Shown piece after piece: positions 1 through 17,069 of a DNA stretch of 32,000 nt. Made by a program: the position numbers and the translations under genes. The notes below the pieces were generated by a model that did not search any database, was not told the DNA's origin, and was given only the letters and a program-made list of their open reading frames with translations. The DNA is from Candidatus Methanophagaceae archaeon (GTDB taxonomy: Archaea > Halobacteriota > Syntropharchaeia > Alkanophagales > Methanospirareceae), in the NCBI GenBank assembly GCA_003194425.1, contig PQXB01000001.1, positions 1,082,728 through 1,114,727 on the forward strand. Direction: 5' to 3'. Each line of letters starts with the position of its first letter. The first letter of the stretch is position 1.

Positions 1-500
1 ACCCCCCGCAGCCCGTACCGCGCGCAGAGAACAATCAGACTCAAGGGCAGCGGACCGCTGCCGAGAAAGAGGACGCGGTCGCCCGGTTTTAGTCCTGCTC
101 CCTGAAATTCAGTCCGAGCGAGTTGGACGTAGTTGGGGAAGTAGGCGAAATTTCTGAGCGTCCTCCACGGGTCTCTGCTCGCCAGCACGAGTTTTGCGTG
201 CTCGATTTCCAGTTTCGCAGTGTAGAGGCTTCTGAACCGAGTAAGAACCTCGAACGTGGAATTGTACCGCGAGCTTGAGAGAATCTCTTCTGCGCGTTTG
301 TCGCAAATGTCCAGCGCAATCAGACGGTCCAGTCGTCGAAAAACATTGTTAAGCCCGTTCGAGGGCGTGGAGTCCTGAAAGATTTCTTTCTTCCCACGAC
401 CTTTAATCGCGGAATAAATCTCCTTAATCTCCTCTGTTATCGCCCCCGCGCAATAGCACGTATTCTTACTCCTACATTCATTTTTATGAATCGCTCTCAT
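1..500 (-). CDS. Nicotianamine synthase-like protein (thermonicotianamine-synthase family); N-terminal ~166 aa, 3' end beyond window
   Basis: Absent from the ORF track because it is open to the window edge. Own translation from ATG (minus) at 500: MRAIHKNECRSKN...RFRSLYTAKLEIEHAKLVLASRDPWRTLRNFAYFPNYVQLARTEFQGAGLKPGDRVLFLGSGPLPLSLIVL... The DPW..LR.F.YFPNY..L...E and V.F.GSGPLPLS motifs match plant NAS and archaeal MTH675-type enzymes as I recall them. Confidence 0.75.
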   Translation of the reverse strand, partial: MRAIHKNECRSKNTCYCAGAITEEIKEIYSAIKGRGKKEIFQDSTPSNGLNNVFRRLDRLIALDICDKRAEEILSSSRYNSTFEVLTRFRSLYTAKLEIEHAKLVLASRDPWRTLRNFAYFPNYVQLARTEFQGAGLKPGDRVLFLGSGPLPLSLIVLCARYGLRG

Positions 501-716
501 AATTTACTCTAAATGAACCTCTCTATAAAAACCCTCAATTCTACGCAGGTAGATTTAAGAATAAAACCCAATTACAGCCTAAAACATCTAACAGACCCTT
601 TTAAAATGATATTTCTTATTATGCTTTTTTGATTCGTAACACCGCGAATATTTTGAGATAGAAGGGGGGGAGAGGGAGAAAGCAGGGGAAAAGTGAGGAG
701 GGGGAAAAAAGTCGTG

Positions 717-1721
717 TTAGTGGTGCTCGTACTTGCGCCGCCACCTCTCCACGCCCTCGTGCGTGTGCTCGTGAATGTGCAGGTGAATGTGTCCTCCCTC
801 GGTCTCAATCGTCCTCGTCAGCCCCGCCACCGCCTCGTCAAGTGAGAGCGGCAGGCTCTCGCAACTGAACCCGAAACACTGCAGCACCTCAAAAATCTTA
901 AACACATCCGGGACATCCAAATTGTTCTTTTTCAGCAACTCGCCGTCAAAAAAAATCTCCCACGGCGTCCCACTCTCAATCACCGTCCGGTTCAGCGCGT
1001 AAATCCGGTCCGCAAGCTCGGGAATCGCATTCACATCGTGCGTCGCAATCACCATCGTGATCCCCTCCCGCTCGTTCAGCCGGTTCAGAATTCCAATCAA
1101 CTCCGTCCTGCTTCGTGGGTCAAGGTTCGCAGTCGGCTCGTCAAGCACCAGAACCCGCGGCTCCATCGCCAAGACCGCCGCCAACGACGCCTTCTTCTTC
1201 TCCCCAAAGCTGAGGTGGTGCGGCGCCCGGTCCTCGTAGCCCGAAAGCCCGAGCAACGCCAACACCTTCCTCACACGCTCTCGCACCTCGCTCTCTTGCA
1301 GCCCTAAATTTATCGGACCAAACGCGACATCGTCAAAGAGCGTCGGCATAAACAACTGGTCGTCAGGGTCCTGAAAGACCATTCCCACCTCTTTCACCAC
1401 TTCTTCCCTTTTCATTTCGCCCAAAGTCCTACCGAACAATTTCACCTCGCCACCAGTCCCACGCAGCGTCCCGTTAAGGTGCAGCAAAAAAGTCGTCTTG
1501 CCCGCTCCGTTCGGTCCCACAATCACAACCCGCTCCCCCTCGTACACTTTCATATTTACCTTCTCCAACGCTTTCGAGCCGTCTGGGTAGGTGTAACTCA
1601 GGTCTCTTACAGTTACCGCTTCTGCTTTTCTTTTCTTCGCTTCTCTTTTCTTCACCTCTCTTTTCTTCACCTCTCTTTTCTTCGCCTCTCTTCTCTTCGC
1701 CTCTCTTTTCATTTTTCTCAA
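717..1721 (-). CDS. cbiO: ECF-type nickel/cobalt transporter ATPase (CbiO/NikO)
   Basis: Walker A GPNGAGKT, signature-like LSFGEKKK, Walker B VLVLDEPTANLD, H-loop ATHD. Lies directly downstream of CbiQ/CbiM genes. Has an N-terminal K-R-E-[AV]-K pentapeptide repeat and a C-terminal His-rich tail. Confidence 0.85.
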   Translation of the reverse strand: MRKMKREAKRREAKKREVKKREVKKREAKKRKAEAVTVRDLSYTYPDGSKALEKVNMKVYEGERVVIVGPNGAGKTTFLLHLNGTLRGTGGEVKLFGRTLGEMKREEVVKEVGMVFQDPDDQLFMPTLFDDVAFGPINLGLQESEVRERVRKVLALLGLSGYEDRAPHHLSFGEKKKASLAAVLAMEPRVLVLDEPTANLDPRSRTELIGILNRLNEREGITMVIATHDVNAIPELADRIYALNRTVIESGTPWEIFFDGELLKKNNLDVPDVFKIFEVLQCFGFSCESLPLSLDEAVAGLTRTIETEGGHIHLHIHEHTHEGVERWRRKYEHH

Positions 1722-1727
1722 ATCTTC

Positions 1728-2516
1728 TTAAACCCCCCTTGCAAAAACAAAAGAAACCGCGTGCAAAGCAACAGCGAAGCCGACGATGAGAACCGCGAGC
1801 GCGTAGTCCCTCGCCTGCATCTTGAACTCAACCAGCGTCTTAGGATTCCTGGTTCCTGTGTAGCCCCGCGACCGCAACGCCTGGTACACCCGCTCCCCGC
1901 GCTCGTAGCTCCTGACAAAGAGCGTTCCCAGTGCTTTTCCGACCGTTCTGAGCGCGTACAGGCTCGGGCTTGTCCGCAGTTTGAACCCCCTCGCTTCCAT
2001 CGCCCGCCAAGTCCGCTGAAACTCGACAACGAAGACGAAGATGTAGCGGTAGGAGAACATAAGCATTTGGACGAGCATATTCGGGACTTTCAGCCTGTCC
2101 AGTGCTTTTATCGTGAGGTCGAACCGCGTGGTCGCGACCACCGGCAGAACGAGGACGACCGCAGAGTAAGCCCGCAGAGCCACCAAAACCCCGTACTCCA
2201 ACCCCTCGTAAGTCATTTTTAGCGCGTAGAACCTGAAGATCTCGTCGCCCTTCACCGTGAAAGGCAGAATCAGGAGGAACGGGACGATGAAAAACGAGAC
2301 CCACTTAATGTGTTGTGAGACGAAGCGGAGTGGCAGTCTTGAGGCTGCGAGGAAGGCGAGAGAGCCGAGCAGACCCGCGAACGCCAACCTCAAGTCCTGA
2401 ACCAGAACGACCGAGAAGATGAGGCAGAGAAAAGCGACTATTTTCGCTCGTGGGTCGAACCTGTGAATTGGGGAGTCGAGCGACGAGAAAAGGTCGATTT
2501 CAGGGTACTCTACCAT
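1728..2516 (-). CDS. cbiQ: ECF transporter transmembrane T component (CbiQ/NikQ)
   Basis: Polytopic membrane protein starting MVEYPEIDLFSSLDSPIHRFDPRAKI (typical CbiQ N-terminus), with ER..RA..ARG-type cytoplasmic motifs (FQRTWRAMEARGF). Start moved to Met45 (2516). The 44-aa Arg-rich extension in the track overlaps the upstream gene and looks non-coding. Confidence 0.8.
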   Translation of the reverse strand: MVEYPEIDLFSSLDSPIHRFDPRAKIVAFLCLIFSVVLVQDLRLAFAGLLGSLAFLAASRLPLRFVSQHIKWVSFFIVPFLLILPFTVKGDEIFRFYALKMTYEGLEYGVLVALRAYSAVVLVLPVVATTRFDLTIKALDRLKVPNMLVQMLMFSYRYIFVFVVEFQRTWRAMEARGFKLRTSPSLYALRTVGKALGTLFVRSYERGERVYQALRSRGYTGTRNPKTLVEFKMQARDYALAVLIVGFAVALHAVSFVFARGV

Positions 2517-2574
2517 CGCACTTTTTCTTTTTGGAAAAGAAAACCAACCTGCACTAAAAGAAAAATTACAGATT

Positions 2575-3102
2575 TTATTTTTTCTCCTCCTCTTTTTTCT
2601 CGTGCCTCTTCTTCTTCTGCTTCCAGCCCGTGTACGCCGCCGCAGCACCTGCTAAGCCCACCAAATACCCAAATCCGGCAACGACCCTCGAGTACAACGG
2701 CATTTCCGCTTCTACACCCGCTCCTACGCCTCCTGCACCTGCACCCGCGACTGTCTGACTTAAGTTTATCGTTGTCTCTCCTCGGTGCCCTGGCATATGA
2801 ACCGCGTCAACAACCACCCTGTACTCTTTTACTCCGATTTTCGGCGGGAAACTGAACTTCCCCTCCTTGTCTGTCGTCCCTTCGAAATACAAATTCCCTG
2901 CCTCGTCGTAGACCCTCACCTCAGCGTCCCGAACAGGCGTTCCACCGCCGAAGTAAGCCTCAACCTCGATTTCGCTTATTTTATGAACCACGTGCATTCG
3001 GTGAGCACTCACCTCGCCTGTGCAGAAGCACGAAAGCACTAGCGCTAACCCTGACACCAGCAACACTACAACCGCAAAACCAAAAATATCTTCTCCTTTC
3101 AT
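2575..3102 (-). CDS. NikL-like accessory membrane protein: N-terminal TM anchor, carboxypeptidase-regulatory/transthyretin-like beta-sandwich, C-terminal TM
   Basis: N-terminal hydrophobic segment. EVRVYDEAGNLYFEGTTDKEGKFSF is a classic CarboxypepD_reg-like motif. C-terminal hydrophobic segment followed by a Lys-rich tail. Sits where CbiN/NikL lies, with a 4-nt overlap to the cbiM/nikM stop. Confidence 0.5.
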   Translation of the reverse strand: MKGEDIFGFAVVVLLVSGLALVLSCFCTGEVSAHRMHVVHKISEIEVEAYFGGGTPVRDAEVRVYDEAGNLYFEGTTDKEGKFSFPPKIGVKEYRVVVDAVHMPGHRGETTINLSQTVAGAGAGGVGAGVEAEMPLYSRVVAGFGYLVGLAGAAAAYTGWKQKKKRHEKKEEEKK

Positions 3103-3821
3103 CTTTTCCCTTCTCCTAAACTCCCTACCAATTCTGGCTTGACTTTCAGCAGAAAAACCACGACCGAGCCGACGACCACTGTCTCTACCAAAATTATCGG
3201 AACGTGCGCGACTGCGAGAGCGAGAGCAACAGCAGTAAAAGTCCCCTCCTCTCCGCCCGAGAGAATGAGCGAGACCGCGGTGAAGACCACAGCCAGAAAG
3301 ACCGCCAGCCCGCCTGCGAGAGCACCGAATATTCCCGCTACTCCTTTACTTCCTTCACTTCCTTTACTTCCTTCACTTCCTTCACTTCTTTCTCTCCCTT
3401 CTCTCCCCTCTCTTCGCCCCCGCGCCAACCTGCACCCGCCCTTGAAGACGGCAGAGGCGAGCAGTGCGGCGACGCCCATATTTGCTGTGTTTATTCCGAT
3501 TGTCGTGATTCCGCCATGCTGAAAGAGGACAGCCTGAAGCAGAACGCCGATAAAAATCGCAGGGTAGGCGAGAATTCCGAGCGTTACACCGAGCAGGCCG
3601 TTGAGCAGGAAATGCGCGCTCGTCGGTCCTACTGGGACGTGAACGAGGGAAGCGACGAAGAACGCCGCGGTCATCACCGACAACCGCGGAATCTCCTCCG
3701 CTTCCCACCCTTCCCCCTGCCGCTTGCTCCACCAGAGTGCTACTGCAAGCAGCACGCCGGTTACTGCCCACCCTGCCGCCAAAACAGGCAGGGACAAGAC
3801 CCCGTCCGAAATGTGCACCAT
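3099..3821 (-). CDS. cbiM: ECF substrate-capture component CbiM/NikM
   Basis: N-terminus M-V-HISDGVLS resembles the conserved MHIxEG/MHIPDG metal-binding N-terminus. Multi-TM protein. Initiation at the GTG at 3818 would give exactly MHISDG. Has a charged REG/SEG/SKG repeat insert in a loop. Confidence 0.85.
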   Translation of the reverse strand: MVHISDGVLSLPVLAAGWAVTGVLLAVALWWSKRQGEGWEAEEIPRLSVMTAAFFVASLVHVPVGPTSAHFLLNGLLGVTLGILAYPAIFIGVLLQAVLFQHGGITTIGINTANMGVAALLASAVFKGGCRLARGRREGREGRERSEGSEGSKGSEGSKGVAGIFGALAGGLAVFLAVVFTAVSLILSGGEEGTFTAVALALAVAHVPIILVETVVVGSVVVFLLKVKPELVGSLGEGKR

Positions 3822-3866
3822 TTTTGTTCCTGCTCTCCTACCCCTGCTTTCTCTTCTTTTCTTTCC

Positions 3867-3908
3867 CCTCTTTTCTTACCGCTCCCCCCTCTTTTCTTAC
3901 CGCTCCCT
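3867..3908. repeat. 21-nt tandem duplication (x2) containing the nikK-like stop codon
   Basis: cctcttttcttaccgctccc occurs at 3867-3886 and 3888-3907. The stop (tta on plus strand, 3897-3899) lies in one copy and its duplicate lies just downstream. Confidence 0.8.
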
Positions 3909-4982
3909 CCTTTTTACCAAGTACGCCACGACAAACAACAGCCCCGCAACCGCGGCTGCCGCGCCAAACCCGGGTGCTCCTTTTCCTTCGCTCGCGGTCG
4001 TTTTCGCCTTCTCTTCCAATTCTCTCACACGGCTCTTCAGTTCCTCTAGTCCCGCTGGTGACGCCGTTTCTGCTGCTTCCTCTGCTGTAGTCGGGAACTT
4101 GTCCAAAACCGGAATTATGAAGACGCTCCGCTGCGTCACCCCTTCCTCTTCCGGCCCGTACGCACCGACGAACCAAATTCCAGGCTCGTCAAGCGTGTAA
4201 GCGAACTCACCCGCTGCGTTCGTCTTCGTCACCCGCGTGAACATCATCGGCGGGTCGTAAGCGAACTTCTTTTTTGCTTCCTCGACTACCGCGTCGCCCA
4301 CTGCTTTTGTGTGGTACTTTTCTACCTCTACTTCCGCGTCCGCAAGAGCACTCCCGTCGTACAACGCCTTCCCTGTGAAGACAAAGCCTTCCTCCAGACC
4401 GTAGGGTCGTGTGAAAGGCACGATTTCCGCTTTCTGCCCGTGCTCTCCTCCGACCCCGAGTTCCGCGTCCCAGCCTTCCCACACTTCTTCACCGCAGTGA
4501 ATCACCGCCTTCACGTAGTCCGTCAATTTCTCGCCCTCGTCCTTGTACTTCGCAAACACTACCCAGTCGCCCTGCTTGTCCACCGTGAACGAAACCTCGT
4601 ACGCCTTCTTCTCTTCTCCTGGCTCTCCTACTGTTATTTCTGTCGGCGTTAGCACCGTAACCGCACCCTTTGGGTCTCTAACCGAAACCTCGGGAACCGA
4701 AGCCATATCAAAGAGAATGTGCTCGTAGGGGTGCCCCCAAATAACCCAGACGGTCTTTGTCTCGCTCCAATTTGCGATGTAGTCTTCTGGCGTCACTTCC
4801 ATGTCCCCTCCCGGGAAGAGCATCGTGAAGTGCGCACTCGCCACACCCACTGTTCCTGCCACTACCACCGCTACCACTGCTGCCACTGCTGCTCCCAAGA
4901 GTAGCCTTGGTAACGAATTCGTTGCCACTGTTCTCGCTTTTTTTCTACTTTTCAGTTCCTTACCCTCTCTTCTTATTCGCAT
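3897..4982 (-). CDS. NikK-like (DUF4198) extracytoplasmic nickel-uptake protein with PGF-CTERM anchor
   Basis: Signal/TM segment followed by SAHFTMLFPGG...VWVIWGHPYEH (DUF4198-like His-containing N-terminus). Internal beta-sandwich-like segment. C-terminus GAPGFGAAAAVAGLLFVVAYLVKRRER is a PGF-CTERM motif. Confidence 0.65.
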   Translation of the reverse strand: MRIRREGKELKSRKKARTVATNSLPRLLLGAAVAAVVAVVVAGTVGVASAHFTMLFPGGDMEVTPEDYIANWSETKTVWVIWGHPYEHILFDMASVPEVSVRDPKGAVTVLTPTEITVGEPGEEKKAYEVSFTVDKQGDWVVFAKYKDEGEKLTDYVKAVIHCGEEVWEGWDAELGVGGEHGQKAEIVPFTRPYGLEEGFVFTGKALYDGSALADAEVEVEKYHTKAVGDAVVEEAKKKFAYDPPMMFTRVTKTNAAGEFAYTLDEPGIWFVGAYGPEEEGVTQRSVFIIPVLDKFPTTAEEAAETASPAGLEELKSRVRELEEKAKTTASEGKGAPGFGAAAAVAGLLFVVAYLVKRRER

Positions 4983-5055
4983 ATTTTCTTACCTTTATTT
5001 CTTTTTAAAAATCTTCTTATTAAAACTATTTTATATTTCACAAATACCCTAAACC

Positions 5056-6126
5056 CTAAAAGTACCCTTTTCTCCGTCTCCAAAGCAGGTAAATAAAGAA
5101 CGGAGCGCCGAAGAACGCGGTAATTATTCCAACAGGCATTTCACCTAAAACCCGCGCCAACGCGTCGGTCCACGCCAAAAAAATCGCCCCTACCAACGCG
5201 GACGCCGGGAAAAGAATTCGGTGGTCGGGACCGACGAGAATTCGCGTGATGTGTGGAATTATGAGACCCACGAACCCGATTGTTCCCACGAACGCGACTG
5301 CGGAAGCGGTAATGAACGCCGAGAGAATTAACAAGATTTTTTTCACCCCCTCCACATTTATGCCGAGCGTCTGCGCCGACTCCTCGCCGAGCAGCAGCGC
5401 GTTCAGGTCCTTCGCAAAAATGTAAATCAAGCCGAAGCAGAGTAGCACCGGCAGTGCCGTTACTTCCACCTCCCGCCACCTCGCTTTCCAGAGCCCGCCC
5501 ATCAGCCAGAAGAAGATGTTGTGCAAGTCCTTTCCTGCAACAAACATTAGAAACGAGAGAACCGCACCAAAGAACATCGAGACCGCGATTCCAGTGAGCA
5601 ACAAAGAGTCAACAGGAATTCTGCCCCCTTCTCCCGCTCCCGCTCCCGCTCCCCCGCCAGTCCGTGCGATGCTGTAAACCAGAAAAGTGGTAAAGACGGC
5701 GCCCAAGAACGCCAAAAACGGCGTAGTGTAGCCTCCTAAGAACCGCGGGACTACAGTCAGCGAGAGAGCAGCGCCGACCGCAGCCCCAGACGCAATCCCA
5801 ATTATGTACGGGTCTGCCATCGGATTTTTGAAGAGCCCCTGCAGCGTTGTCCCCGCGGTCGCCAACGCAAAACCAACCAACAACCCCAAAAAAATCCGCG
5901 GCAGCCTGATTTGGAAAATTATCGTCTCGTACTTCTGCGGAACCAAAGCCGCAGCGGTCTCGCAGAGCTGCAGTTTGCCGCAGAACAAAGCGACAATTTC
6001 TGACGGCGGCACGTAGACAGGACCGACTGCCGTCGTCAGCACCACCGTAACGGCTAAAATCGCAACCAAGTAAAGCAGCACCAGTCGCCAGTGAAGGAAC
6101 TTCTTAAATTTCATTTCAACAGCCAA
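5056..6126 (-). CDS. FecCD/BtuC-family ABC transporter permease (iron-chelate/corrinoid type)
   Basis: IRLPRIFLGLLVGFALATAGTTLQGLFKNPMADPYIIGIASGAAVG is the FecCD family signature region. Polytopic membrane protein. Contains a GGGAGAGAGEGG insert. Confidence 0.85.
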   Translation of the reverse strand: MAVEMKFKKFLHWRLVLLYLVAILAVTVVLTTAVGPVYVPPSEIVALFCGKLQLCETAAALVPQKYETIIFQIRLPRIFLGLLVGFALATAGTTLQGLFKNPMADPYIIGIASGAAVGAALSLTVVPRFLGGYTTPFLAFLGAVFTTFLVYSIARTGGGAGAGAGEGGRIPVDSLLLTGIAVSMFFGAVLSFLMFVAGKDLHNIFFWLMGGLWKARWREVEVTALPVLLCFGLIYIFAKDLNALLLGEESAQTLGINVEGVKKILLILSAFITASAVAFVGTIGFVGLIIPHITRILVGPDHRILFPASALVGAIFLAWTDALARVLGEMPVGIITAFFGAPFFIYLLWRRRKGYF

Positions 6127-8153
6127 CCAAAGAAAAACCTGAAGATTTTTTCAAATATTGACGGCTTTGGCGGCGGCGCGGCGGCTGCTCTACTTGAATT
6201 TGTCTGCTTGGCTGTCTGCTTTTGAGAATGCGAGGTCGTAGCAGCCGTGCTAAAGTTCGTCTGCGAAGGCGTTGCTCTTGGCGTCGTCGTAACCGCTACT
6301 CTTGGCGTCGGCGTTACCGCTGCTGCGGACGGTGTTGGTGCCGGTGTCGGAGTCGGCGAGCCTTCGGTCTCGTTTCTCGTTTCTAACGCGGCGCAAATTG
6401 CGAAAGTTCCAAACGACGGGCTTCTCGCTGTGTAAAAAACTTTCTCACTGCTTTCTCCTCCTGTCCCTGTCTCGCTCGTGTTCAGCTCTGCCCAAGTTTC
6501 GTTCTCGTCGTCGTAGCGGAACAAGGAGACGGTTTTAGCAGCGGCTTGGGGGTTTAGCGGTTTAGCAGCCAACCACGACTTACTCACGCTGAAGTTCAGC
6601 CGCACCCACTCCACGCTGCCTTCTAAATCCTCTGCAGAGAGGGCGAAGCATTTGTAAGTCGCGAGAGCGAGAGAAGAAGTAGGAGCAGGAGCAGAAGTAG
6701 AAGCAGGACCAGAAGTAGAAGCAGAAGTAGGAGCAGGCTGCTGAGCCGGTTCTACAGAAATGCTCGTAAATTTCACCTCTCCTTCCTCCCCGGCTTTTAC
6801 TCTAATCTCGTCCAGGCAGTCGTAGTCGTCTTCTCCTTCTAATTTCACAACCGCTTCTTCACCTGCTTCAACCGTCTTGTAGTTGTCGTCGTCCTCAACG
6901 GCAGCGAAAAAATCACTGAAATTCTGATGAACAATTTCTACTGCCTCCACCACTCTCGGACCTGGTCTTGATATTATGTCTCCGTCGATTACATAAACCC
7001 GATTATTCTTCACGGCGTCCAGATTCTTCAGCCGCTCGTCGTTCATTATTTGCTCGTACGCAATACTCATCTCGCCCATTCCGCTGTCGCAGATGATAAC
7101 TTGCGGATTCTTTTCAATGAGCTCCTCAAGGCTCATTATAAAATATCCTGTCTTGCCGTCTGCAGCCGCGATGTTTTTGCCGCCTGCGATTTCAATTATC
7201 TCGTCTGCAAATGTCTCCTTGCCCGCGGTAAAGAAGTCGCCGATGTTGTAAAACACCCTCGGTCTTTGCTCTTCTTCCAAGAACTCTGTCTTTTGCTCTA
7301 CCGCTCCTAACCTCCTTCTCAAATCTTCTAAAAGAGACAAAGCCTCCGCCTTGCGTTTCTCAATCGTGCCTACGACTTTTATGTGCCTAAAAATCGCCTC
7401 GATATTCTTCGGATGCATTGCATAAACCTTATAGCCCGACTCCCGCAGGTAATAAATCACACCAGCAGGGTTGCCGTGAGCACCAACGACCAAATCCGGC
7501 TCCAAATCCACAATCTTCTCGAAACTCGGCGTTGAATACCCGCCAATCTTTTTTATCTCTTTCACTTCTGGCGGGTAGTCGCAGAACTCGGTAACGCCGA
7601 CAACGCTCTCGCCTGCACCCACCGCGAATAAAACCTCGGTGCAGCTCGGCGCCATCGAAACCAGCCGCTCGGGTCGCTTTAAAAACCGCAGCTGGTAGTT
7701 TTCAAGCCCCTCCAGTTCACAAGCGTCGTTCTCCTCTCCTACTACCAGCCAGACCGAGAGATTCCAAGTCGCAGACACAGTTTCATTTTCTGCCTCTCCT
7801 ACACCTACTCCCACGACGCTGACATTGTAAATCCCGTACTCTTCGTCCTCAAAGCCAAGAGTAAAATCTGCACTCTCTCCTTCCGATTTTTTCGTCTCCT
7901 CTCCGTTCACCGACCACGACCACTCGTAAACCGTGCCTGCGCTAGAGTCTGAGGAGACGCGGAACTCCACCTCCTTGCTCTCTTCTACTCCGACTTCAAC
8001 TGAAAAAATAGTGGCGTCGTCTTCGGTCACGCTGTTCCATTTCGTGAGGTCGCTGCTTCCAAACGCTGTCCCGAGGACTGTCCCGAAGAGGGTCAGCGGA
8101 ATTAAGAGAGAGAGCAGAAGAAAAGCGACGAAGACTTTAATTTTTGCACTCAT
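6111..8153 (-). CDS. Multidomain cluster-A (BtuF/FhuD-like) substrate-binding protein: N-terminal Ig/PKD-like domain, binding domain, PGF-pre-PGF-like domain, Thr/Pro-rich tail
   Basis: Core RLVSMAPSCTEVLFAVGAGESVVGVTEFCDYP...DLVVG...NPQVIICDSG...NNRVYVIDGDIISRPGPRVVEAVE is typical of PF01497-type binding proteins. Overlaps the permease start by 16 nt. Confidence 0.8.
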   Translation of the reverse strand: MSAKIKVFVAFLLLSLLIPLTLFGTVLGTAFGSSDLTKWNSVTEDDATIFSVEVGVEESKEVEFRVSSDSSAGTVYEWSWSVNGEETKKSEGESADFTLGFEDEEYGIYNVSVVGVGVGEAENETVSATWNLSVWLVVGEENDACELEGLENYQLRFLKRPERLVSMAPSCTEVLFAVGAGESVVGVTEFCDYPPEVKEIKKIGGYSTPSFEKIVDLEPDLVVGAHGNPAGVIYYLRESGYKVYAMHPKNIEAIFRHIKVVGTIEKRKAEALSLLEDLRRRLGAVEQKTEFLEEEQRPRVFYNIGDFFTAGKETFADEIIEIAGGKNIAAADGKTGYFIMSLEELIEKNPQVIICDSGMGEMSIAYEQIMNDERLKNLDAVKNNRVYVIDGDIISRPGPRVVEAVEIVHQNFSDFFAAVEDDDNYKTVEAGEEAVVKLEGEDDYDCLDEIRVKAGEEGEVKFTSISVEPAQQPAPTSASTSGPASTSAPAPTSSLALATYKCFALSAEDLEGSVEWVRLNFSVSKSWLAAKPLNPQAAAKTVSLFRYDDENETWAELNTSETGTGGESSEKVFYTARSPSFGTFAICAALETRNETEGSPTPTPAPTPSAAAVTPTPRVAVTTTPRATPSQTNFSTAATTSHSQKQTAKQTNSSRAAAAPPPKPSIFEKIFRFFFGWLLK

Positions 8154-8878
8154 TCCAACTCAGCCTCTTTTATGTCTAAAAACCAATTTTCTCCAACCTC
8201 CCGCCTCTCCGCGTCTCCCACTCCCAGTTTCACCCGCCGCTTAAAAATCGGCCCGTCCACTACAAAGGTGTGGTACTCGCCAGACTCGCCGCACAAGTGG
8301 AAATCAAACTGCCTCAACTCCTCGATAAAACTTTCGTCCACTCTCCTCCCGAGCCACTCCTCTCTAACCCTCGTTGCGACCACGACCGCCTCAAATCCCG
8401 CCTCTACGAACTCTCGCAACGCCGCTTCGGGCTTGAGCCCCCAGAGCGGCAGAATTGGTTCTATTTCAAGCTCGCTGCAGACCCGTTCCACCCACTCTCT
8501 GTGCTCCGCCAGGTCAATGTCCCCGAAGACGCCTGCTTCCACTCCCACGCCGCCTGCTTCCACTCCCACGCCCTCCTTTCCCTCTTTTCCCTCTTTTCCT
8601 CTTCCGTCCTTCTTCAATTCCGCTACTGCCTGCTTGAATTTACTCTCGTAGCCCTCCCACGAGGCGTTCACCTGAAAAATCGGAATTCCCACCGCCTCTG
8701 ACTGCAGTCGGAGTAAAGAACTGCGAAGCCCGTGAGCCCGTTCTCTCTTCCCGTCCTCTGCCAAGAAATTCAAGAGACGAGTGACCTCAAAACCAGATTT
8801 CAACGCTTTGTAGCACGCCAAACAGCTTTCCTTTCCTCCGCTCCAAGAAACAAAAACTCTCTTCTTCTTCTCTTTCAT
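8150..8878 (-). CDS. PP-loop ATPase of the MJ0570/Dph6 (diphthine-ammonia ligase-like) family
   Basis: VFVSWSGGKESCLACYKA is the SGGKDS-type PP-loop. Length and remainder are consistent with ATP_bind_4. ATGA overlap with the binding-protein start. Contains a GKEGKEGKE + GVGVEAG x2 insert. Confidence 0.7.
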   Translation of the reverse strand: MKEKKKRVFVSWSGGKESCLACYKALKSGFEVTRLLNFLAEDGKRERAHGLRSSLLRLQSEAVGIPIFQVNASWEGYESKFKQAVAELKKDGRGKEGKEGKEGVGVEAGGVGVEAGVFGDIDLAEHREWVERVCSELEIEPILPLWGLKPEAALREFVEAGFEAVVVATRVREEWLGRRVDESFIEELRQFDFHLCGESGEYHTFVVDGPIFKRRVKLGVGDAERREVGENWFLDIKEAELE

Positions 8879-10564: not shown

Positions 10565-12445
10565 TTATCCCCCTCGCTTGAAATGTTCAGTTACCGCCGC
10601 CTTGAGCAGCCGAAGAACACTTAAGCTTAAGCTCCTCCTCGCCGCGGGCCACTCCAGCCCCTCCTTCTCGTTGATGACCGAGTTCAGCAGCAGGTCGAGT
10701 TTGGGCTTCAGTCGCATCATTTTTTGGTGCTGTGTTTGTGCAGTGCCGTCAGTGCCGTCAGTGCCGTCAGTGCCGTCGTTTAGTTTTTTTATTTCGTCGA
10801 TTTCAGAGGTGAGCTCGACTGCGAGCCGTATTTTCTCCGCAGTCACCTCGGACGAAGCCCGGTCAACCAGCCCGCACTCCGCCTTCAACTCGTTCAGCCT
10901 TAACCCTGCCTTGTAAGTACAGTCCACGATTTCGCCCCGCGTCAGCCACTCGGTCTCGTAGTTCAGGGCGTACTTCCAACTCGGCGAGAGCATCGCCGCT
11001 CGGTACTGCTCGAGCGACTTAAAGAGGATTTTGTAGCCGAACTTCTCGGGGTTCTCGTAGGCGACGCAGCCGGGGTCAAGGAACGGCGAGTAAGCGAGAA
11101 TAAACGGAACCACCCGCTTCCCACTCCCGTACTTCTTCATTAAACGACCGCACCACTCAATGGTCTGCATAACAGATTCGCAGGTCTGAAAAGGCAAGCC
11201 AATCATAAAAAAAAGGTCGAACTTCTTGCAGCCCGCCTGCAGCGCCCATTTTAGGTTCTCCTCAATCTCGCGGTTCTTGTACCGCTTCCCGACCGCTGCT
11301 CGTATTTTCTCGTCGTGGCTGTCAGGGGAGATTTCAAAGTTGAAGTTCTTGACCGACCCTGCCACGAGTTCAAAATACTCTCTCGGGTTCGGAACAGTGT
11401 CAAAGAGTTCAAAGACGAGTTGGTTCTCGAAATTCGCTCTCTTCTTTTTCAACCGCGCCAAGACGGTACGGGCGTATTTTTCGCCGGCTTGGCGGAGGTC
11501 GCCGATTACGAAAATTGGGGCTCTCGTGTAGTTCGTGGTTCGGAGAATGTCCGCAGCGACTAACTCGGGGTCGCGAAACGCCGGCTTCCTGCGGTTGCAG
11601 TAGCCCGCGAGTGCGTTCCGAGACCCGCCGCAGAAGACGCAGTTGTGAACACAGCCGCGGCAGGTTAGCACGGGCGTGATCGGGTAGTCCAGCCACTCGT
11701 GCGACGACCAGCCGTGAAACGGGATTAAACTTTTGAGGTCTCGGTATTTCAGCGCCGACTTGAAGACTGGGAAGTAGTTGTTCACGGACTTGTTCAGGCG
11801 GGCAGGGACGTGCGTGAGTGGATTTACACGCACCTTAACCTCGCCACTGCTCACCTTAACCTCGCCACTGCTCACCTTAACCTCGCCACTGCTTTCGTCT
11901 TCCTCCTCCTTCCAAACGAGGTTCGGGATTTTAGCGAACTCGAAATCGTGCGGACGCCGACGCCGAACCTGTAAAAGCGTCTTCATAAGTTGCAGCAGTG
12001 GCTCTTCGGTAGAGTCGCCCCGCAGAATAAAATCCACCTCCGGACAGCGAATCAACTCCTCGTAGAAGTAGGACGCGGAGAAACCCCCGAAAATCACGGG
12101 CGTGCTCCCGTGGTACCTCTTGCAAATTTTCGCTACCTCGAGGCTACCCTGTGCGTGCGGCAGCCAGTGAAAGTCAATCCCAAACGCCCCTCTCGGCTTG
12201 AGTCGCCGCACCATTTTCTCAGCGTCAAACTCCTCGCTGCCGAGCATTCTCGCCGCTAAATTCACTATTCGCACCCTCACTCCGTTCCGCTCCAAATGCT
12301 CGAGCAAAGAGAAAAATCCGAGTGGGTACATCTCGAAGACGGGCGTTGAGGGGACGCCGTCTGCAATCGGGCCGTACAAAATCGCTCGCTTCCTGAAGTC
12401 GTAGACCGCGGGTGCGTGCAGCAGAATTAAATCCGGGTTGCTCAT
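10565..12445 (-). CDS. B12-binding-domain / radical SAM enzyme, substrate unknown
   Basis: N-terminal cobalamin-binding-like domain (LILLHAP...VRIVNL). Radical SAM cluster motif C-VHN-C-VF-C (CRGCVHNCVFCGG). Two perfect in-frame tandem inserts: SSGEVKV x3 and GTD x4. Confidence 0.75.
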   Translation of the reverse strand: MSNPDLILLHAPAVYDFRKRAILYGPIADGVPSTPVFEMYPLGFFSLLEHLERNGVRVRIVNLAARMLGSEEFDAEKMVRRLKPRGAFGIDFHWLPHAQGSLEVAKICKRYHGSTPVIFGGFSASYFYEELIRCPEVDFILRGDSTEEPLLQLMKTLLQVRRRRPHDFEFAKIPNLVWKEEEDESSGEVKVSSGEVKVSSGEVKVRVNPLTHVPARLNKSVNNYFPVFKSALKYRDLKSLIPFHGWSSHEWLDYPITPVLTCRGCVHNCVFCGGSRNALAGYCNRRKPAFRDPELVAADILRTTNYTRAPIFVIGDLRQAGEKYARTVLARLKKKRANFENQLVFELFDTVPNPREYFELVAGSVKNFNFEISPDSHDEKIRAAVGKRYKNREIEENLKWALQAGCKKFDLFFMIGLPFQTCESVMQTIEWCGRLMKKYGSGKRVVPFILAYSPFLDPGCVAYENPEKFGYKILFKSLEQYRAAMLSPSWKYALNYETEWLTRGEIVDCTYKAGLRLNELKAECGLVDRASSEVTAEKIRLAVELTSEIDEIKKLNDGTDGTDGTDGTAQTQHQKMMRLKPKLDLLLNSVINEKEGLEWPAARRSLSLSVLRLLKAAVTEHFKRGG

Positions 12446-12464
12446 CTTTTCCTCCTCTCTGCTT

Positions 12465-12511
12465 TACTCACGAAGCTCACTCACGAAGCTTACTCACGAA
12501 GCTCACGAACC
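12465..12511. repeat. 13-nt tandem repeat (~x3.5) built from the last codons plus stop of mobB
   Basis: Minus strand reads cttcgtgagtaag/cttcgtgagtgag/cttcgtgagtaaa. It fills most of the spacer between the mobB stop and the radical-SAM start. Coordinates approximate. Confidence 0.75.
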
Positions 12512-12960
12512 CGACTTTTTATCCAGTTCAGAATCTCGTCGAGATTGCCGTCATATTTTATCACTCCCTCCCCTCCCTCGATCTCGAGTTCAAGCCCGAG
12601 GTTACCGACCGAAATCTTTGGAATCGCTTCTCGCTTGTGCCCCTCCACAAGAATTAAATCCGGGGACGCAGTCGCGTTCAAAATCGCTGCAATCTCTTTT
12701 AATTCCATCCCTCGCTTAAAAACGAACGCGGTCTCGTTTGGCGACGCAGCGACGACCACACTTGCTCCTGCTTCCCCGTGCCTCCAGGTGTCTTTTCCCT
12801 CGGTCTCGATCGAGAACTGCTTTGGAATGTTCTTTACTGTCGCAACGCAGTATTTTCCGTTCTTCTCCTTCTTCTCTTTTTTCAGTCGCCGGATCAATTT
12901 CTCGACCAACGCCGTCTTTCCGCTGTTGTGGTAGCCACAAATCCCGATTAGATTGTTCAT
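12490..12960 (-). CDS. mobB: Molybdopterin-guanine dinucleotide biosynthesis adapter protein MobB
   Basis: P-loop GICGYHNSGKT, then GKDTWRHGEAGA and LILVEGHK, typical of MobB. About 155 aa. Confidence 0.8.
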   Translation of the reverse strand: MNNLIGICGYHNSGKTALVEKLIRRLKKEKKEKNGKYCVATVKNIPKQFSIETEGKDTWRHGEAGASVVVAASPNETAFVFKRGMELKEIAAILNATASPDLILVEGHKREAIPKISVGNLGLELEIEGGEGVIKYDGNLDEILNWIKSRVRELRE

Positions 12961-13017
12961 TGAGTTTCTTTGTTTTGTTTTTATTCTGTTTTGTCTTTTT
13001 TAAAAATAGAAAAGAAG

Positions 13018-13045
13018 AAGAGTAAAATAAAAAGAGTAAAATAAA
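13018..13045. repeat. 14-nt perfect tandem duplication immediately upstream of the guaA ATG
   Basis: aagagtaaaataaa at 13018-13031 and 13032-13045. Confidence 0.8.
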
Positions 13046-13047
13046 AA

Positions 13048-14646
13048 ATGAAGACAAGTAACAAGGTCGCGGTGCTCGACTTCGGGGGGCAGTACAGCCA
13101 CCTCATCGTTCGGCGGTGCAGAGAATTGGGCGTTTACACCGAACTTCACCCGTACGGAGTTTCAACAACAGAGCTTGGTCTTGGCGAGGTCAAAGGAATA
13201 ATCCTTTCAGGCGGTCCGTTCAGCGTGCACGAACCGGGTAGTCCAAAATGCAGTCCTGAGATTTTTGAATTAGGCGTCCCAGTTCTCGGAATTTGTTACG
13301 GGGCGCAGCTGATTGCGTTTCTGAAAGGCGGCGTGGTAGAAGAAGGGCGGAAGGGCGAGTTTGGAAGGGCAGAACTGCTCTTTAAAGATTCCGAGCTGTT
13401 TGCTGGGGTGAGGGGGGTGAGGGGGAGAGAGGGCGGGAAAATAAATGTCTGGATGTCACACGGAGATGTGATAAAGGAGTTTGCGGTTGCGGAAATAATC
13501 GGCTACACGAAGAACTCGCCGGTTGCTGCGTTTCGTGTTTCTGTCTCTGTTTCTAATTCTAATTCCAACTCAAGAATTTACGGCGTTCAGTTCCACCCCG
13601 AGGTTCGCCACACCGAGAAGGGCGACAAGATTTTGTGGAATTTCTTGTATAAAATCTGCGGCTGCGAGCGGAATTGGACGCTGGAATCGTTCGCTACGGA
13701 GGCAGTAGAAGAAATAAGGCGTACGGTGGGCAGCGAAGGCAGGGTGGTCTGCGGGCTCAGCGGCGGAATTGACTCTTCTACAACCGCGGTGCTGGTCAGC
13801 AAAGCCGTGGGCGAGCGGCTCACTTGCATTTTCGTTGACAACGGGCTGCTGCGGAAAGGCGAGAAGGAAACGGTTCTAAACACTTTCGAGAAGAATTTTA
13901 AAATGCGACTCGTGTTCGTGGACGCGAGGGAGCGGTTTCTGGAGGGCTTGCGGGGAGTCGCGGACGCCGAGGCGAAGCGAAAAATAATTGGAGAACTGTT
14001 CGTGAAAATCTTTGAGGAAGAGGCGAAGCGGCTGAGAGGGGGGGGAAATGTAGATTTCCTGGCTCAAGGCACGATTTACCCGGACAGAATTGAGAGTGCT
14101 GCGGGGAGAAGAGGCGGTGTTGCGTCGCTCATAAAATCGCACCACAACGTGGGCGGGCTGCCCGAGAAACTGGGGCTGCGGCTGTTAGAGCCGATCAAGG
14201 ACTTGTACAAGGACGAGGTGCGGGAAGTGGCGAGGGAACTCGGAATGCCGCCGGAGATTCTGAACCAGCACCCGTTCCCAGGTCCTGGTCTCGCGGCTCG
14301 CGTGATTGGAGAGGTTACGGAGGAGAAACTGCGAATTTGTCGTGAAGCGTCGAATGTGGTGGAGGAGGAATTAAAAAGGAGCGGGTGGTACGAGAAGGTC
14401 TGGCAGGCGTTTGCTGTCGTAGGCGACGACCTCGCCACGGGTGTGCTTGGCGACGCGAGAAGCCTGGGCAGAATCGTTACAATTCGCGTGGTTGAGTCAG
14501 AGGAGGCGATGACAGCGGATTTCGTGAAACTGCCCTACGAGGTGCTCGAGAGGATGAGCAGGCGAATAACGAACGAGGTTAAGGGCGTTACTTGGGTGAC
14601 TTACGCGGTCTCGTCCAAGCCGCCTGCGACGATCGAGCCGTGTTGA
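13048..14646 (+). CDS. guaA: GMP synthase (glutamine-hydrolysing), fused GATase + ATP-pyrophosphatase
   Basis: GATase GICYGAQL and HPE triad region. PP-loop GLSGGIDSS. C-terminal KPPATIE. Two low-complexity inserts (GVRGVRG; VSVSVSNSNSNS). Confidence 0.95.
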   Translation: MKTSNKVAVLDFGGQYSHLIVRRCRELGVYTELHPYGVSTTELGLGEVKGIILSGGPFSVHEPGSPKCSPEIFELGVPVLGICYGAQLIAFLKGGVVEEGRKGEFGRAELLFKDSELFAGVRGVRGREGGKINVWMSHGDVIKEFAVAEIIGYTKNSPVAAFRVSVSVSNSNSNSRIYGVQFHPEVRHTEKGDKILWNFLYKICGCERNWTLESFATEAVEEIRRTVGSEGRVVCGLSGGIDSSTTAVLVSKAVGERLTCIFVDNGLLRKGEKETVLNTFEKNFKMRLVFVDARERFLEGLRGVADAEAKRKIIGELFVKIFEEEAKRLRGGGNVDFLAQGTIYPDRIESAAGRRGGVASLIKSHHNVGGLPEKLGLRLLEPIKDLYKDEVREVARELGMPPEILNQHPFPGPGLAARVIGEVTEEKLRICREASNVVEEELKRSGWYEKVWQAFAVVGDDLATGVLGDARSLGRIVTIRVVESEEAMTADFVKLPYEVLERMSRRITNEVKGVTWVTYAVSSKPPATIEPC

Positions 14647-14683
14647 AAGCCGTGTTGAAAGCCGTGTTGAAAGCCGTGTTGAA
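14638..14683. repeat. 12-nt tandem repeat (~x4) starting in the last codons of guaA and carrying its stop codon
   Basis: ccgtgttgaaag x3 plus ccgtgttgaat. In the guaA frame it reads P-C-stop-K repeatedly. Confidence 0.9.
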
Positions 14684-14690
14684 TAAAGGG

Positions 14691-15932
14691 TTAGTTGTGC
14701 CTCTTGTGCCGCGTCCCCACTCTCTCGGGGTTCCTCGCAAAGACCTCAAAGCCCGGAATAACGACCCTCACGACAGGAACGCCGATTTCCTGCCTCGTTA
14801 AATCTACTACTACCACTCGCCTCGCCACTCGTCTCAACCTTTCAAGCGCAACCTCAATGTCGCCGTCTATTCTGTCTGTCGCCAAGTTTGGAAGTTCGCT
14901 CAACCTCACACACTCTCCCTCTCTCCCTCCCCCGTCTTCAAACCAGTGCCGATTCCTTCGCTTCATTTCCTCGTAACTCATTCTTCCCTCTCCCTCTCTT
15001 CTCGTCGCTCTTCCTCTTCTCGACGCAGCAGCACTCGCGATTTGCAAAACACGGGACTGTGCAGCCTCGGTTACCGCTCTAATCGTCGCTATTCTGGGGT
15101 CGCTGTGCGTTCCCGCGCCGTAAACGAGCAAGGACGCGTCCTTCGTTTCAGCGTCGTCCAACGCCAACGCAACCGTCGTAAACCCCGTGTCCGAGGGAAT
15201 GTACCAGAAATGAGGAACAATTCCCGCAGCCTCAAACCTCTCTCGCAGCTCAAACAGCCTGCCGTCGCTCTCGCTGATTTCTATTTGTTTTCCCGCATTC
15301 TGCTTCAACTCCACGCAGCTCAGTGCGTCCCGCTCAATCACTTCGGTAATGCCGTGAAAAATTGCTTCTTCGAGGTTGTTCCCCGAGGCGATTCCGTTGC
15401 TGTCGCTCCTGAACAGCCTCGCTCCTCGGTTCGAGACGAAGGGGTGAAAGACCGCGTTCGCAGGAACAAGCACCTCCTCGTCCCTCAAAATGTCGTAGCC
15501 CTCGCACCACTCCAATTTCGAACTCGGACCGACGGTGGAGAGTGTGCTCAAAATAAGCGACGCAGGCTCCACTTTCTCTTTCGCCCCGTAGGAGTCGTAG
15601 GGTTCAAACAGGAATTTCGCCCTGTCCCCCTGTTTTATCTCCGCAGAATACCGCTCGATCGCTTCCATAAGGACCGAGACTCTCGCCTGCTCTCTCGTAA
15701 GTCCTTTCCCTGCGTGAACAGACCTCGCACCTTCTTCAGCCCCCGGTCGGCTCGCGGAAAAGACAGGAAGCCCGAGTTTGTCAAGCCCTGTAAGGTCGTC
15801 TATTTTCTTTATTCCTACCTTCTCCTCAAGCCGTTCTACCTCGCCCCAAGTCTCGGTTGGGGTAAAAGCCCTGTGCGTGTCGAGGAAATATCTTTTGGGC
15901 GTTCGCTTGAGTTCTATTTTCATTTTACACAC
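14691..15932 (-). CDS. ycaO: YcaO-domain protein (archaeal, ~410 aa; ATP-dependent amide-backbone activating enzyme)
   Basis: Typical archaeal YcaO N-terminus (R.. TP.ET...V..L....GI.....T.LD.LG.PV) and GKGLTREQARVSVLMEAIERYSA motif. No TfuA-like ORF in the window. Confidence 0.85.
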   Translation of the reverse strand: MCKMKIELKRTPKRYFLDTHRAFTPTETWGEVERLEEKVGIKKIDDLTGLDKLGLPVFSASRPGAEEGARSVHAGKGLTREQARVSVLMEAIERYSAEIKQGDRAKFLFEPYDSYGAKEKVEPASLILSTLSTVGPSSKLEWCEGYDILRDEEVLVPANAVFHPFVSNRGARLFRSDSNGIASGNNLEEAIFHGITEVIERDALSCVELKQNAGKQIEISESDGRLFELRERFEAAGIVPHFWYIPSDTGFTTVALALDDAETKDASLLVYGAGTHSDPRIATIRAVTEAAQSRVLQIASAAASRRGRATRREGEGRMSYEEMKRRNRHWFEDGGGREGECVRLSELPNLATDRIDGDIEVALERLRRVARRVVVVDLTRQEIGVPVVRVVIPGFEVFARNPERVGTRHKRHN

Positions 15933-15954
15933 CCTCCTCTTTTATGCAAGCCTC

Positions 15955-17040: not shown

Positions 17041-17069
17041 TTCCTCTCTTCAACTCTTCTTCATTCTTC

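Follow-up and report, generated by a model that had tools for sequence, protein, structure and literature searches.

The window examined here is a stretch of 32,000 nucleotides (32 kb) from a Candidatus Methanophagaceae archaeon (contig PQXB01000001.1, positions 1,082,728 to 1,114,727 of the forward strand). One end of it carries nine minus-strand genes in which a nicotianamine synthase (NAS)-like gene lies next to a nickel/cobalt transporter of the energy-coupling factor (ECF) type. Read in the direction of transcription, the array begins with a PP-loop ATP pyrophosphatase, a large class III substrate-binding protein, and a FecCD/BtuC-type permease, continues with NikK, NikM, a NikL-like protein, NikQ, and NikO, and closes with the NAS-like gene (Table 1). 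The genes were identified by open reading frame (ORF) listing, six-frame translation, and Pfam and NCBIfam scans of the window. This order agrees with the original prediction for the locus, and the 216-nt spacer that it placed before the NAS-like gene is exact. As it had also stated, no second ATPase lies near FecCD, since NikO is the sole ATP-binding cassette (ABC) ATPase among window ORFs of at least 120 aa, and no CntK- or CntM-like gene is found within the window. The closest matches for the window proteins come throughout from Methanophagales, the ANME-1 group of anaerobic methanotrophic archaea (ANME). An independent Joint Genome Institute contig (L095), ~99% identical, repeats the gene order between the binding protein and NAS, which shows that their juxtaposition is real and no assembly artefact.

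Table 1. Coordinates of the nine-gene array, its spacers and sequence boxes, and other features of the 32-kb window.
Feature	Position	Strand	Assignment or remark
NAS-like gene (group 1 subfamily)	3-500	minus	PF03059, E 4.9e-24 over residues 20-162; 166 codons from ATG 500
TATA-like TTTTTATA	524-531		at -31 from the NAS ATG
TCTTAAATC box	552-560		in the NAS spacer
GTGTTACGAA box, invariant	633-642		in the NAS spacer, at -142
Oligo-T tract	705-710		right after the nikO stop
NikO-NAS spacer	501-716	minus	exactly 216 nt
NikO, ECF ATPase (A component), 331 aa	717-1712	minus	TIGR01166, 223.7 vs cutoff 211.8; PRK13652, E 2.8e-80
NikQ, ECF T component, 262 aa	1728-2516	minus	PF02361 (CbiQ), E 1.7e-40; TIGR02454, 138.7 vs cutoff 111.8
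NikL-like membrane-anchored extracytoplasmic subunit, 175 aa	2575-3102	minus	NF058648, E 2.3e-21
NikM, ECF S component, 240 aa	3099-3821	minus	PF01891 (CbiM), E 7.6e-51
NikK, extracytoplasmic, 361 aa	3897-4982	minus	DUF4198 PF10670, E 7e-30, 105 bits vs cutoff 34
FecCD-NikK spacer, AT-rich	4983-5055	minus	73 nt
FecCD/BtuC-type permease	5056-6126	minus	PF01032, E 3.4e-90
Class III substrate-binding protein, 680 aa	6111-8153	minus	Peripla_BP_2 PF01497, E 8.6e-38
PP-loop ATP pyrophosphatase	8150-8878	minus	Diphthami_syn_2 PF01902, E 3.1e-52
YcaO	14691-15932		
PIN-domain gene	20833-21324		in a low-GC stretch (20-22 kb, GC 0.39-0.43)
CdhC	26942-28468	opposite to the array	
ThsB-like TIR-domain ORF	28596-29060		between cdhC and cdhD
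CdhD	30549-31895	opposite to the array	

The central operon is assigned by its protein-family matches to the NikKMLQO-type ECF nickel/cobalt transporters, with predicted S, T, ATPase, K, and L components all present. The NikL-like protein is a divergent member, scoring 76.6 bits against NF058648 where the family cutoff is 100, and its start overlaps the nikM stop by 4 nt. NikK has a signal peptide and a PGF-CTERM anchor (PF18204). The NikO start is ATG 1712 and not the listed TTG 1721, and NikQ starts at 2516; both agree with the gene calls of L095, which give NikQ 262 aa. The window NikO is 80-82% identical to NikO of other Methanophagales loci in which nik and NAS genes are joined. The window nik operon lacks CbiN and PDGLE genes and has NikK and NikL in their place. 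Accessory subunits of the NikK/NikL kind form the nickel-type set (PMC2667541), and the context, with a gene for the nickel chelatase CfbA beside NAS in eight loci, favours nickel over cobalt as the metal. The bacterial NikKMLQO systems (PMC2667541; Brucella ure2, PMC2868824) have the same five components in the order K, M, L, Q, O, and there too NikK and NikL replace NikN/CbiN. In contrast to these, the system in ANME is archaeal, anchors its NikK by PGF-CTERM, begins its NikM with M-V-H and not M-H, and is linked to NAS. A survey of 2009 found only NikMNQO types in archaea and NikKMLQO in bacteria only (PMC2667541), and its presence in ANME and Methanosarcinales extends the class beyond the bacteria of that survey.

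The predicted mature N-termini of three of these subunits are conserved. The NikM N-terminus MVHISDG is kept in ANME-1 and ANME-2, and a GTG start, which would restore the canonical MHISDG, is ruled out by the relatives, whose codon at this position is GTA or GTT; NikM thus truly begins with M-V-H. Removal of the Met would leave Val-His, a predicted N-terminal X-His metal site. At the predicted signal-peptide cleavage site of NikK, the motif AHFTM(L/I/V)FP, cut between A and H, is invariant in 19 sequences. The corresponding SAHR motif of NikL, again cut between A and H, is invariant in the 20 copies within nik clusters and differs in divergent second copies and in a bacterial copy. The X-His end of NikM together with the Ala-His cleavage sites of NikK and NikL fits the capture of a free ion rather than the import of a chelate complex.

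The NAS-like gene runs past the window edge. It keeps the catalytic Glu (KLEIE), the catalytic Tyr (PNYVQL), and the S-adenosylmethionine (SAM) motif LGSGPLP, while its C-terminal part, including the PPANNTVVFL motif, is visible only in the 99%-identical L095. There, a second paralog of the same subfamily (group 1) follows immediately after the counterpart of the window gene. The family profile matches thermonicotianamine synthase (3FPE) with E 4.8e-45 and CntL with E 4e-12, and the window protein reaches only 15.3 bits against the CntL equivalog NF033601, whose cutoff is 350. The archaeal synthase MtNAS (MTH675; PDB 3FPE, 3FPF, 3O31) shares the fold and the catalytic Glu and Tyr, and has the motifs YPRYLEL and FIGGGPLPLT where group 1 has PNYLQLA and FLGSGPLPLS. 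MTH675 makes thermonicotianamine from glutamate and two molecules of SAM. Re-clustering splits the initial NAS cluster into group 1 (the window type), an MtNAS-like group 2, and a class I SAM methyltransferase; some 26-29 members of the initial 165-copy cluster are such methyltransferases, joined to it by single-linkage clustering. Group 1 clusters apart from group 2 yet co-occurs with it. In Methanosarcina and Desulfobacteraceae, group 2 lies directly upstream of group 1, and loci with at least two true NAS paralogs are common. As a side observation, the first NAS gene of L095 (L095:7640-7810, against window 1-160) is frameshifted by a 19-nt tandem duplication (CAACTCGCTCGGACTGAAT twice) and the window copy is intact; the frameshift is either a strain-level pseudogene or an assembly artefact.

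The pairing of NAS with the ECF operon recurs widely. A profile built from 25 NAS homologues retrieved 78 NAS loci, 69 of them archaeal, from contigs of one genome per species, and the loci were compared by tblastn with the window proteins and by ORF clustering. A gene for CbiM or CbiQ, the ECF-specific M and Q components, is present in 38 of the 69 archaeal loci. Where at least 5 kb of flank is available on both sides, such a gene lies within 5 kb of NAS in 19 of 27 loci. Chance adjacency is estimated here at around 1%, from the few such loci per 3-5 Mb genome, and control loci fetched for other reasons contain an ECF M/Q gene in 0 of 11 cases. The linkage across archaeal genomes that the original prediction had proposed to check is thus found.

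The arrangement of the partners varies between lineages. In Methanophagales, NikK-M-L-Q-O is followed by co-directional NAS in the window order (L001, L002, L006, and L007, and the truncated loci L004, L005, L008, and L037). In ANME-2, the same five nik genes are divergent from NAS (12 loci); in Methanococcoides, nik and NAS are co-directional and ~50 nt apart; in Methanolobus and L042, NAS stands upstream of NikK; and in Methanosarcina, two to four NAS-family genes lie between cbiM-PDGLE and cbiQ-cbiO. The occurrence of the same partners in five arrangements argues for selection on the NAS-ECF linkage and not for inherited synteny. In the Methanobacteriales, the lineage of MtNAS and thus of the sole archaeal NAS enzyme characterised so far, CbiM lies within ~2 kb of NAS in three of the four long-contig loci (L090, L091, and L093; not L092), and L090 has a full CbiM-PDGLE-CbiQ set 3.3 kb further on. 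The 99%-identical MtNAS homologue on the 2.4-kb contig L094 has a divergent GNAT neighbour and no nik gene, its wider context lying beyond the contig. In L091, L093, and L094, the MtNAS-type gene and a GNAT acetyltransferase gene form a divergent pair, and the region immediately upstream encodes a giant FmdE-domain protein and a lone CbiM in L091 and L093. Among the ANME-1 loci, L007, L009, and L039 have common flanks of GyrA, CTP synthase, and a DUF7524 protein followed by NAS. As the whole operon is absent from L009 and L039 and present in L007, nikKMLQO behaves as a cassette that can be inserted or deleted upstream of NAS.

In ANME-1, the NAS gene is preceded by a conserved block of its own. 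It spans ~150 nt in eight ANME-1 loci whose spacers differ in length (216 to ~520 nt), and an alignment of the eight spacers gives 78% mean column identity over 170 nt. Within it, each locus has a single copy of the invariant GTGTTACGAA, which precedes the called start of its first NAS gene by 100-142 nt (142 nt where that call matches the aligned ATG). TCTTAAATC and the TATA-like TTTTTATA lie closer to the gene, and the block is probably the binding site of a regulator. The oligo-T tract behind nikO has similar counterparts after nikO in other ANME-1 loci. Because of these tracts and the conserved TATA/promoter block, NAS probably has its own transcript in ANME-1. The 73-nt spacer ahead of NikK, in which L095 carries an 18-nt tandem duplication, is a likely promoter of the nik operon. 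A TGTTA-N-TAACA palindrome occurs upstream of NikK in L002 and L007 only. An operator common to the nik and NAS promoters was considered and rejected, as GTGTTACGAA is found upstream of NAS only. A riboswitch or structured 5' untranslated region in the NikO-NAS spacer finds no Rfam match, and RNA structure there is likewise dismissed, the consensus fold being -1.45 kcal/mol with no real covariation. The ANME-1 block (L001-L008 and L037) also holds an imperfect inverted repeat, TGTTAC-N13-GT(G/C)ACA, whose right half is degenerate in the window.

Further genes recur beside NAS. A class I SAM methyltransferase (Methyltransf_11, ~250 aa) adjoins it in ~28 loci of ANME-1, ANME-2, Methanococcoides, and Methanosarcina (L002, L007-L009, L014, L017-L019, L023, L025, L034-L036, L045-L047, L049-L051, L053, L056, L059, L060, L062, L063, and L068), which hints at a methylated nicotianamine-like product. 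A small CbiX protein beside NAS passes the equivalog model of CfbA, the F430 nickel chelatase (NF033198, 132 bits vs cutoff 120), in eight ANME-1 and ANME-2 loci (L001, L003, L005, L010, L013, L015, L030, and L038). A radical SAM gene of the AhbD/NirJ-like kind, which modifies tetrapyrroles, is near NAS in eight ANME-2 loci, and cobyric acid synthase (CobQ) with NadE in four ANME-1 loci. Neighbours of this kind could also mean that the product is no chelator: the NAS-fold enzyme would move an aminocarboxypropyl group to a cofactor, a tetrapyrrole, or a solute, and adjacency to the ECF genes would reflect shared regulation or hitch-hiking. The methyltransferase, the radical SAM protein, CfbA, and CobQ would all suit such chemistry, and group 1 is a distinct subfamily that is probably orthologous neither to MtNAS nor to CntL. 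Even so, this alternative is quite improbable. It is specifically a metal importer that NAS is linked to, through all five arrangements, and we know of no F430 or corrinoid variant that carries an aminocarboxypropyl group. All characterised NAS-fold enzymes, as far as is known, make metal-binding aminocarboxylates (PMC10248798).

NAS genes of the two groups are also found outside the archaea. Metagenome-assembled genomes of Desulfobacteraceae and other bacteria (L069, L071-L076, and L078; including Eth-SRB2) carry a pair of group 2 and group 1 genes, 50-52% identical to the archaeal genes, and some of these genomes belong to sulfate reducers from ANME-type habitats. A pyridoxal phosphate (PLP) enzyme of the alanine-racemase fold (BhcC-like) follows the pair in L069, L072-L074, L076, and L078, and an ABC ATPase gene lies shortly upstream of it in L072, L073, and L078. 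Transfer of the pair between archaea and bacteria is possible.

The bacterial cnt operons for staphylopine, pseudopaline, and yersinopine resemble the archaeal loci in that a NAS-fold aminobutyryl transferase is encoded beside a metal importer and the biosynthetic genes are clustered; the PLP enzyme behind the Desulfobacteraceae NAS pair recalls CntK. Unlike the cnt operons, the archaeal NAS loci have no CntM, no CntL equivalog, and no conserved exporter, and they add NAS paralogs, the SAM methyltransferase, and CfbA as partners. No CntM-like gene occurs among the annotated recurrent NAS neighbours, the singleton neighbours having been only partly scanned. The importers differ as well, since that of cnt is an Opp/NikA- or Fhu-type ABC system for the complex, whereas the one found here is of the ECF Ni/Co type for the free ion. 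Judged by its genes, the window system would fall outside the cnt opine metallophores.

Nevertheless, the cnt parallel suggests that the NAS product could be a secreted nickelophore, which would be exported, solubilise nickel from the sulfidic surroundings, and hand the metal or its complex to NikK/NikL and from there to NikMQO. Bacterial cnt operons pair chelator synthesis with an importer in this way (PMC13518427), the NAS-ECF linkage is conserved, and NikK is extracytoplasmic. Genes for MATE/MOP-type exporters flank NAS in four Methanosarcina loci (L051, L054, L058, and L067), and a gene of the MFS type lies near NAS in one Methanothermobacter locus (L090). Sulfidic habitats also hold very little free nickel. 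Yet the NAS surroundings of all ANME-1 and ANME-2 loci are free of polytopic exporter genes, the X-His N-terminus of NikM is suited to a bare ion, and adjacency to the gene of cytoplasmic CfbA fits an internal role; moreover, we know of no ECF system that accepts a metal-chelate complex. Secretion is therefore regarded as somewhat unlikely. Of the nicotianamine-like metallophore pathway originally proposed for the locus, the part that stands is nickel or cobalt handling, which the conserved linkage favours; secretion stays unproven, with no exporter near NAS in ANME. Cluster c9, which was considered as a candidate exporter, was rejected as a soluble HExxH protein.

The preferred reading, to which a probability of roughly 45% is given, is that a NAS-type chelator serves the supply of Ni(II) or Co(II), that the array consists of three modules standing head to tail, and that the product is most likely cytoplasmic. 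The three modules, nikKMLQO, NAS, and the PP-loop/binding-protein/FecCD genes, would be three probably separate transcription units placed head to tail by chance. The ECF system would import Ni(II) and possibly Co(II). Surface-anchored NikK and membrane-anchored NikL would expose an N-terminal His after cleavage and probably capture the metal ion, NikM with its Val-His N-terminus probably binds the bare ion, and NikQ and NikO would couple ATP hydrolysis to transport. The NAS paralogs would join aminobutyrate moieties taken from SAM into a polyaminocarboxylate of the nicotianamine type, perhaps with methylation. In methane-metabolising archaea, this pathway would be conserved as the functional partner of Ni/Co ECF import. 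Its chelator would stay in the cytoplasm, take over the Ni(II) brought in by the importer, buffer it, and pass it on to CfbA, to acetyl-CoA decarbonylase/synthase and carbon monoxide dehydrogenase (ACDS/CODH), and to hydrogenases. The cytoplasmic role is preferred because the ANME loci lack exporters and because NAS adjoins the gene of CfbA, itself a cytoplasmic enzyme.

Nickel demand in these organisms is considerable. Methanogens and ANME need exceptional amounts of nickel for methyl-coenzyme M reductase with its cofactor F430, for ACDS/CODH, and for hydrogenases, and free nickel is vanishingly low in the sulfidic settings where they live. In plants and fungi, nicotianamine made by a NAS-fold enzyme is an intracellular ligand of iron, zinc, and nickel that keeps the metals soluble and harmless. 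It is the favoured functional model here, except that plants have nothing to match the proposed hand-over between an ECF importer and a tetrapyrrole nickel chelatase. The narrower proposal that a nicotianamine-type ligand, possibly methylated, is the nickel chaperone between the ECF importer and CfbA and other nickel enzymes must be called unlikely. If true, it would give archaeal thermonicotianamine-like compounds a physiological role and would provide, to our knowledge, the first case of a metabolite delivering metal to a tetrapyrrole pathway. In any case, the conserved NAS-ECF linkage bears on the role of archaeal nicotianamine, a question since the MtNAS structures. The linkage of NAS, ECF genes, and CfbA is testable in the genetically tractable Methanosarcina and would provide candidate genes for a step that controls how methane is produced and oxidised. 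In searchable full text, no literature was found that links archaeal NAS with nik, ECF transport, F430, or ANME, and a review of cntL/NAS contexts may mention such a link.

Several observations weigh against the preferred reading. The gene identities, the NAS-ECF linkage, the NAS promoter block, and the independence of the PP-loop/binding-protein/FecCD genes are direct results; the function of the NAS pathway, including the chemistry of its product, the metal, and the site of action, is read from gene context, and the window itself holds only 166 codons of the gene. Eight of the 27 well-flanked loci have no nearby ECF gene, and L009 and L039 keep their ANME-1 flanks without nikKMLQO. As NAS has a promoter of its own, in which no motif shared with the nik promoter was found, co-regulation of the two is also unproven. 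The exporters beside NAS in the four Methanosarcina loci and in the Methanothermobacter locus would fit secretion. The metal, moreover, could be cobalt: CobQ is encoded near NAS in the four ANME-1 loci mentioned above, the Methanosarcina PDGLE protein carries the NCBIfam name CbiN, and some bacterial NikKMLQO systems are predicted to be cobalt importers (PMC2667541).

The three remaining genes of the array form a module apart. The PP-loop gene ends 4 nt inside the binding-protein gene, whose own overlap with FecCD is 16 nt. The top NCBIfam match of the permease is BtuC (NF007081, 350.9 bits, below the cutoff of 461). The binding protein has an extra N-terminal domain, a Peripla_BP_2 core (~residues 160-410), and a PGF-pre-PGF domain, and also matches TIGR04281 (E 3.5e-50, under the cutoff) and TIGR04213. 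Its top PDB matches, with E values of 3e-33 to 1e-20, are 4m7o, the B12-binding 5ysc, the heme-binding 2r7a, and E. coli BtuF, compared with ~1e-5 for siderophore binders and 1.8e-7 for the nickel-binding 4ino. The window protein is one member of a large Methanophagales family whose proteins are 560-1040 aa long. The genes next to its closest homologues encode PQQ beta-propeller/DUF4430 proteins, a second binding protein, a small radical SAM protein, FecCD, and in some contexts a 423-aa ABC ATPase, and none of these contexts includes nik or NAS. DUF4430, which we take to be the transcobalamin-like C-terminal domain, would fit corrinoids. The PP-loop protein is a paralog of the diphthamide-synthase family that does not reach the archaeal Dph6 equivalog (TIGR03679, 119.2 vs cutoff 197.3). 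Its gene is counted with the binding-protein/FecCD module because the 4-nt overlap recurs in L087 and because in L079 and L080 it lies 4-5 kb or less from a FecCD gene and an ABC ATPase.

As a type II importer, the window set is incomplete, with a binding protein and a permease and without a cognate ATPase in the 32 kb. The same ATPase-less pair is found in L084 and L085, whereas the ATPase is present in L086 and L079. L084 shares 6,7-dimethyl-8-ribityllumazine (DMRL) synthase and MobB with the window and has neither nik nor NAS, a pattern that suggests an ancestral binding-protein/FecCD pair at this locus, with nik-NAS added later. In L095, the nik genes are identical in length to those of the window, and the neighbouring pair is damaged: 230 nt are missing from the binding-protein gene, which also has 64 nt inserted, and FecCD has lost 81 nt. 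Such damage would fit relaxed selection on a pair that has been orphaned, and errors in an older assembly could account for it too. Importers of the BtuCDF/HmuTUV kind likewise combine a class III binding protein with a FecCD/BtuC permease, and B12, heme, and BtuC proteins are the best matches here. Unlike them, the window set lacks an ATPase, has a 680-aa binding protein with extra N- and C-terminal domains that is translationally coupled to a PP-loop paralog, and belongs to an expanded ANME-1 family. In this diversified BtuF-like family (L083-L089), many members are fused to PQQ beta-propeller and DUF4430 domains or lie beside them; an exosortase/archaeosortase-like gene follows one member, and some members form pairs with giant CARDB/NosD surface proteins.

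The original prediction had joined all nine genes into one metallophore supercluster, in which FecCD and the giant binding protein would import the nickel chelate, powered by NikO or an unlinked ATPase, and the PP-loop enzyme would take part in the pathway. The single strand, the overlapping PP-loop, binding-protein, and FecCD genes, and the mere 73 nt between FecCD and NikK speak for it, as does Yersinia CntPQR, an FhuD/FecCD-like importer of yersinopine complexes. Across the 78 NAS loci, by contrast, no clear FecCD, Peripla_BP_2, or PP-loop homologue is found, apart from one weak match to the binding protein (24%) where L006 ends. The binding-protein homologues keep company with PQQ-propeller/DUF4430 and radical SAM genes and an ATPase of their own, the L084 pair has no nik or NAS, and in L095 it is the nik genes that stay intact. 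The kinship of the binding protein to B12 and heme binders is the very outcome that had been named in advance as speaking against a chelate role. The supercluster is therefore very improbable indeed. Only the pairing of NAS with the Ni/Co ECF genes is conserved, the trio occurs elsewhere in NAS-free surroundings, and the chelate-type transporter genes are corrected to bystanders. The PP-loop/BtuF-like/FecCD trio is a separate ABC uptake module, probably of tetrapyrrole or corrinoid type, that stands beside nik only in this lineage.

The heavy nickel demand of ACDS had also been brought forward in support. CdhC and CdhD are indeed encoded in the window; their co-presence carries no weight, as they lie on the other strand at least 18 kb from the array, beyond unrelated genes.

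Several observations concern the rest of the window. Beside the array, positions 10565-18197 contain a B12-binding radical SAM protein (626 aa), MobB, GMP synthase, YcaO, a 361-aa ORF without a Pfam match, and a radical SAM/SPASM protein. Among these, YcaO and the radical SAM proteins may be enzymes of post-translational or cofactor modification. The TIR-domain ORF and the PIN-domain gene of Table 1 are possibly defence genes or mobile insertions. Short tandem repeats are frequent, with 49 rows from Tandem Repeats Finder in the 32 kb, mostly of periods that are multiples of 3 and in frame within genes (for example 5631-5653, 6671-6736, 8530-8603, 10741-10777, 11831-11893, and 16641-16741). A radical SAM protein of the window has a threefold GEVKVSS repeat. 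In NikO, the N-terminal KREA motif is expanded (KREA x5.5) by a 15-nt in-frame repeat at 1629-1710, and NikM has a 9-nt repeat insertion at 3342-3415 that gives SEG/SKG repeats in a loop. The insertions and deletions that separate the window from L095 are mostly tandem duplications or changes in repeat copy number.

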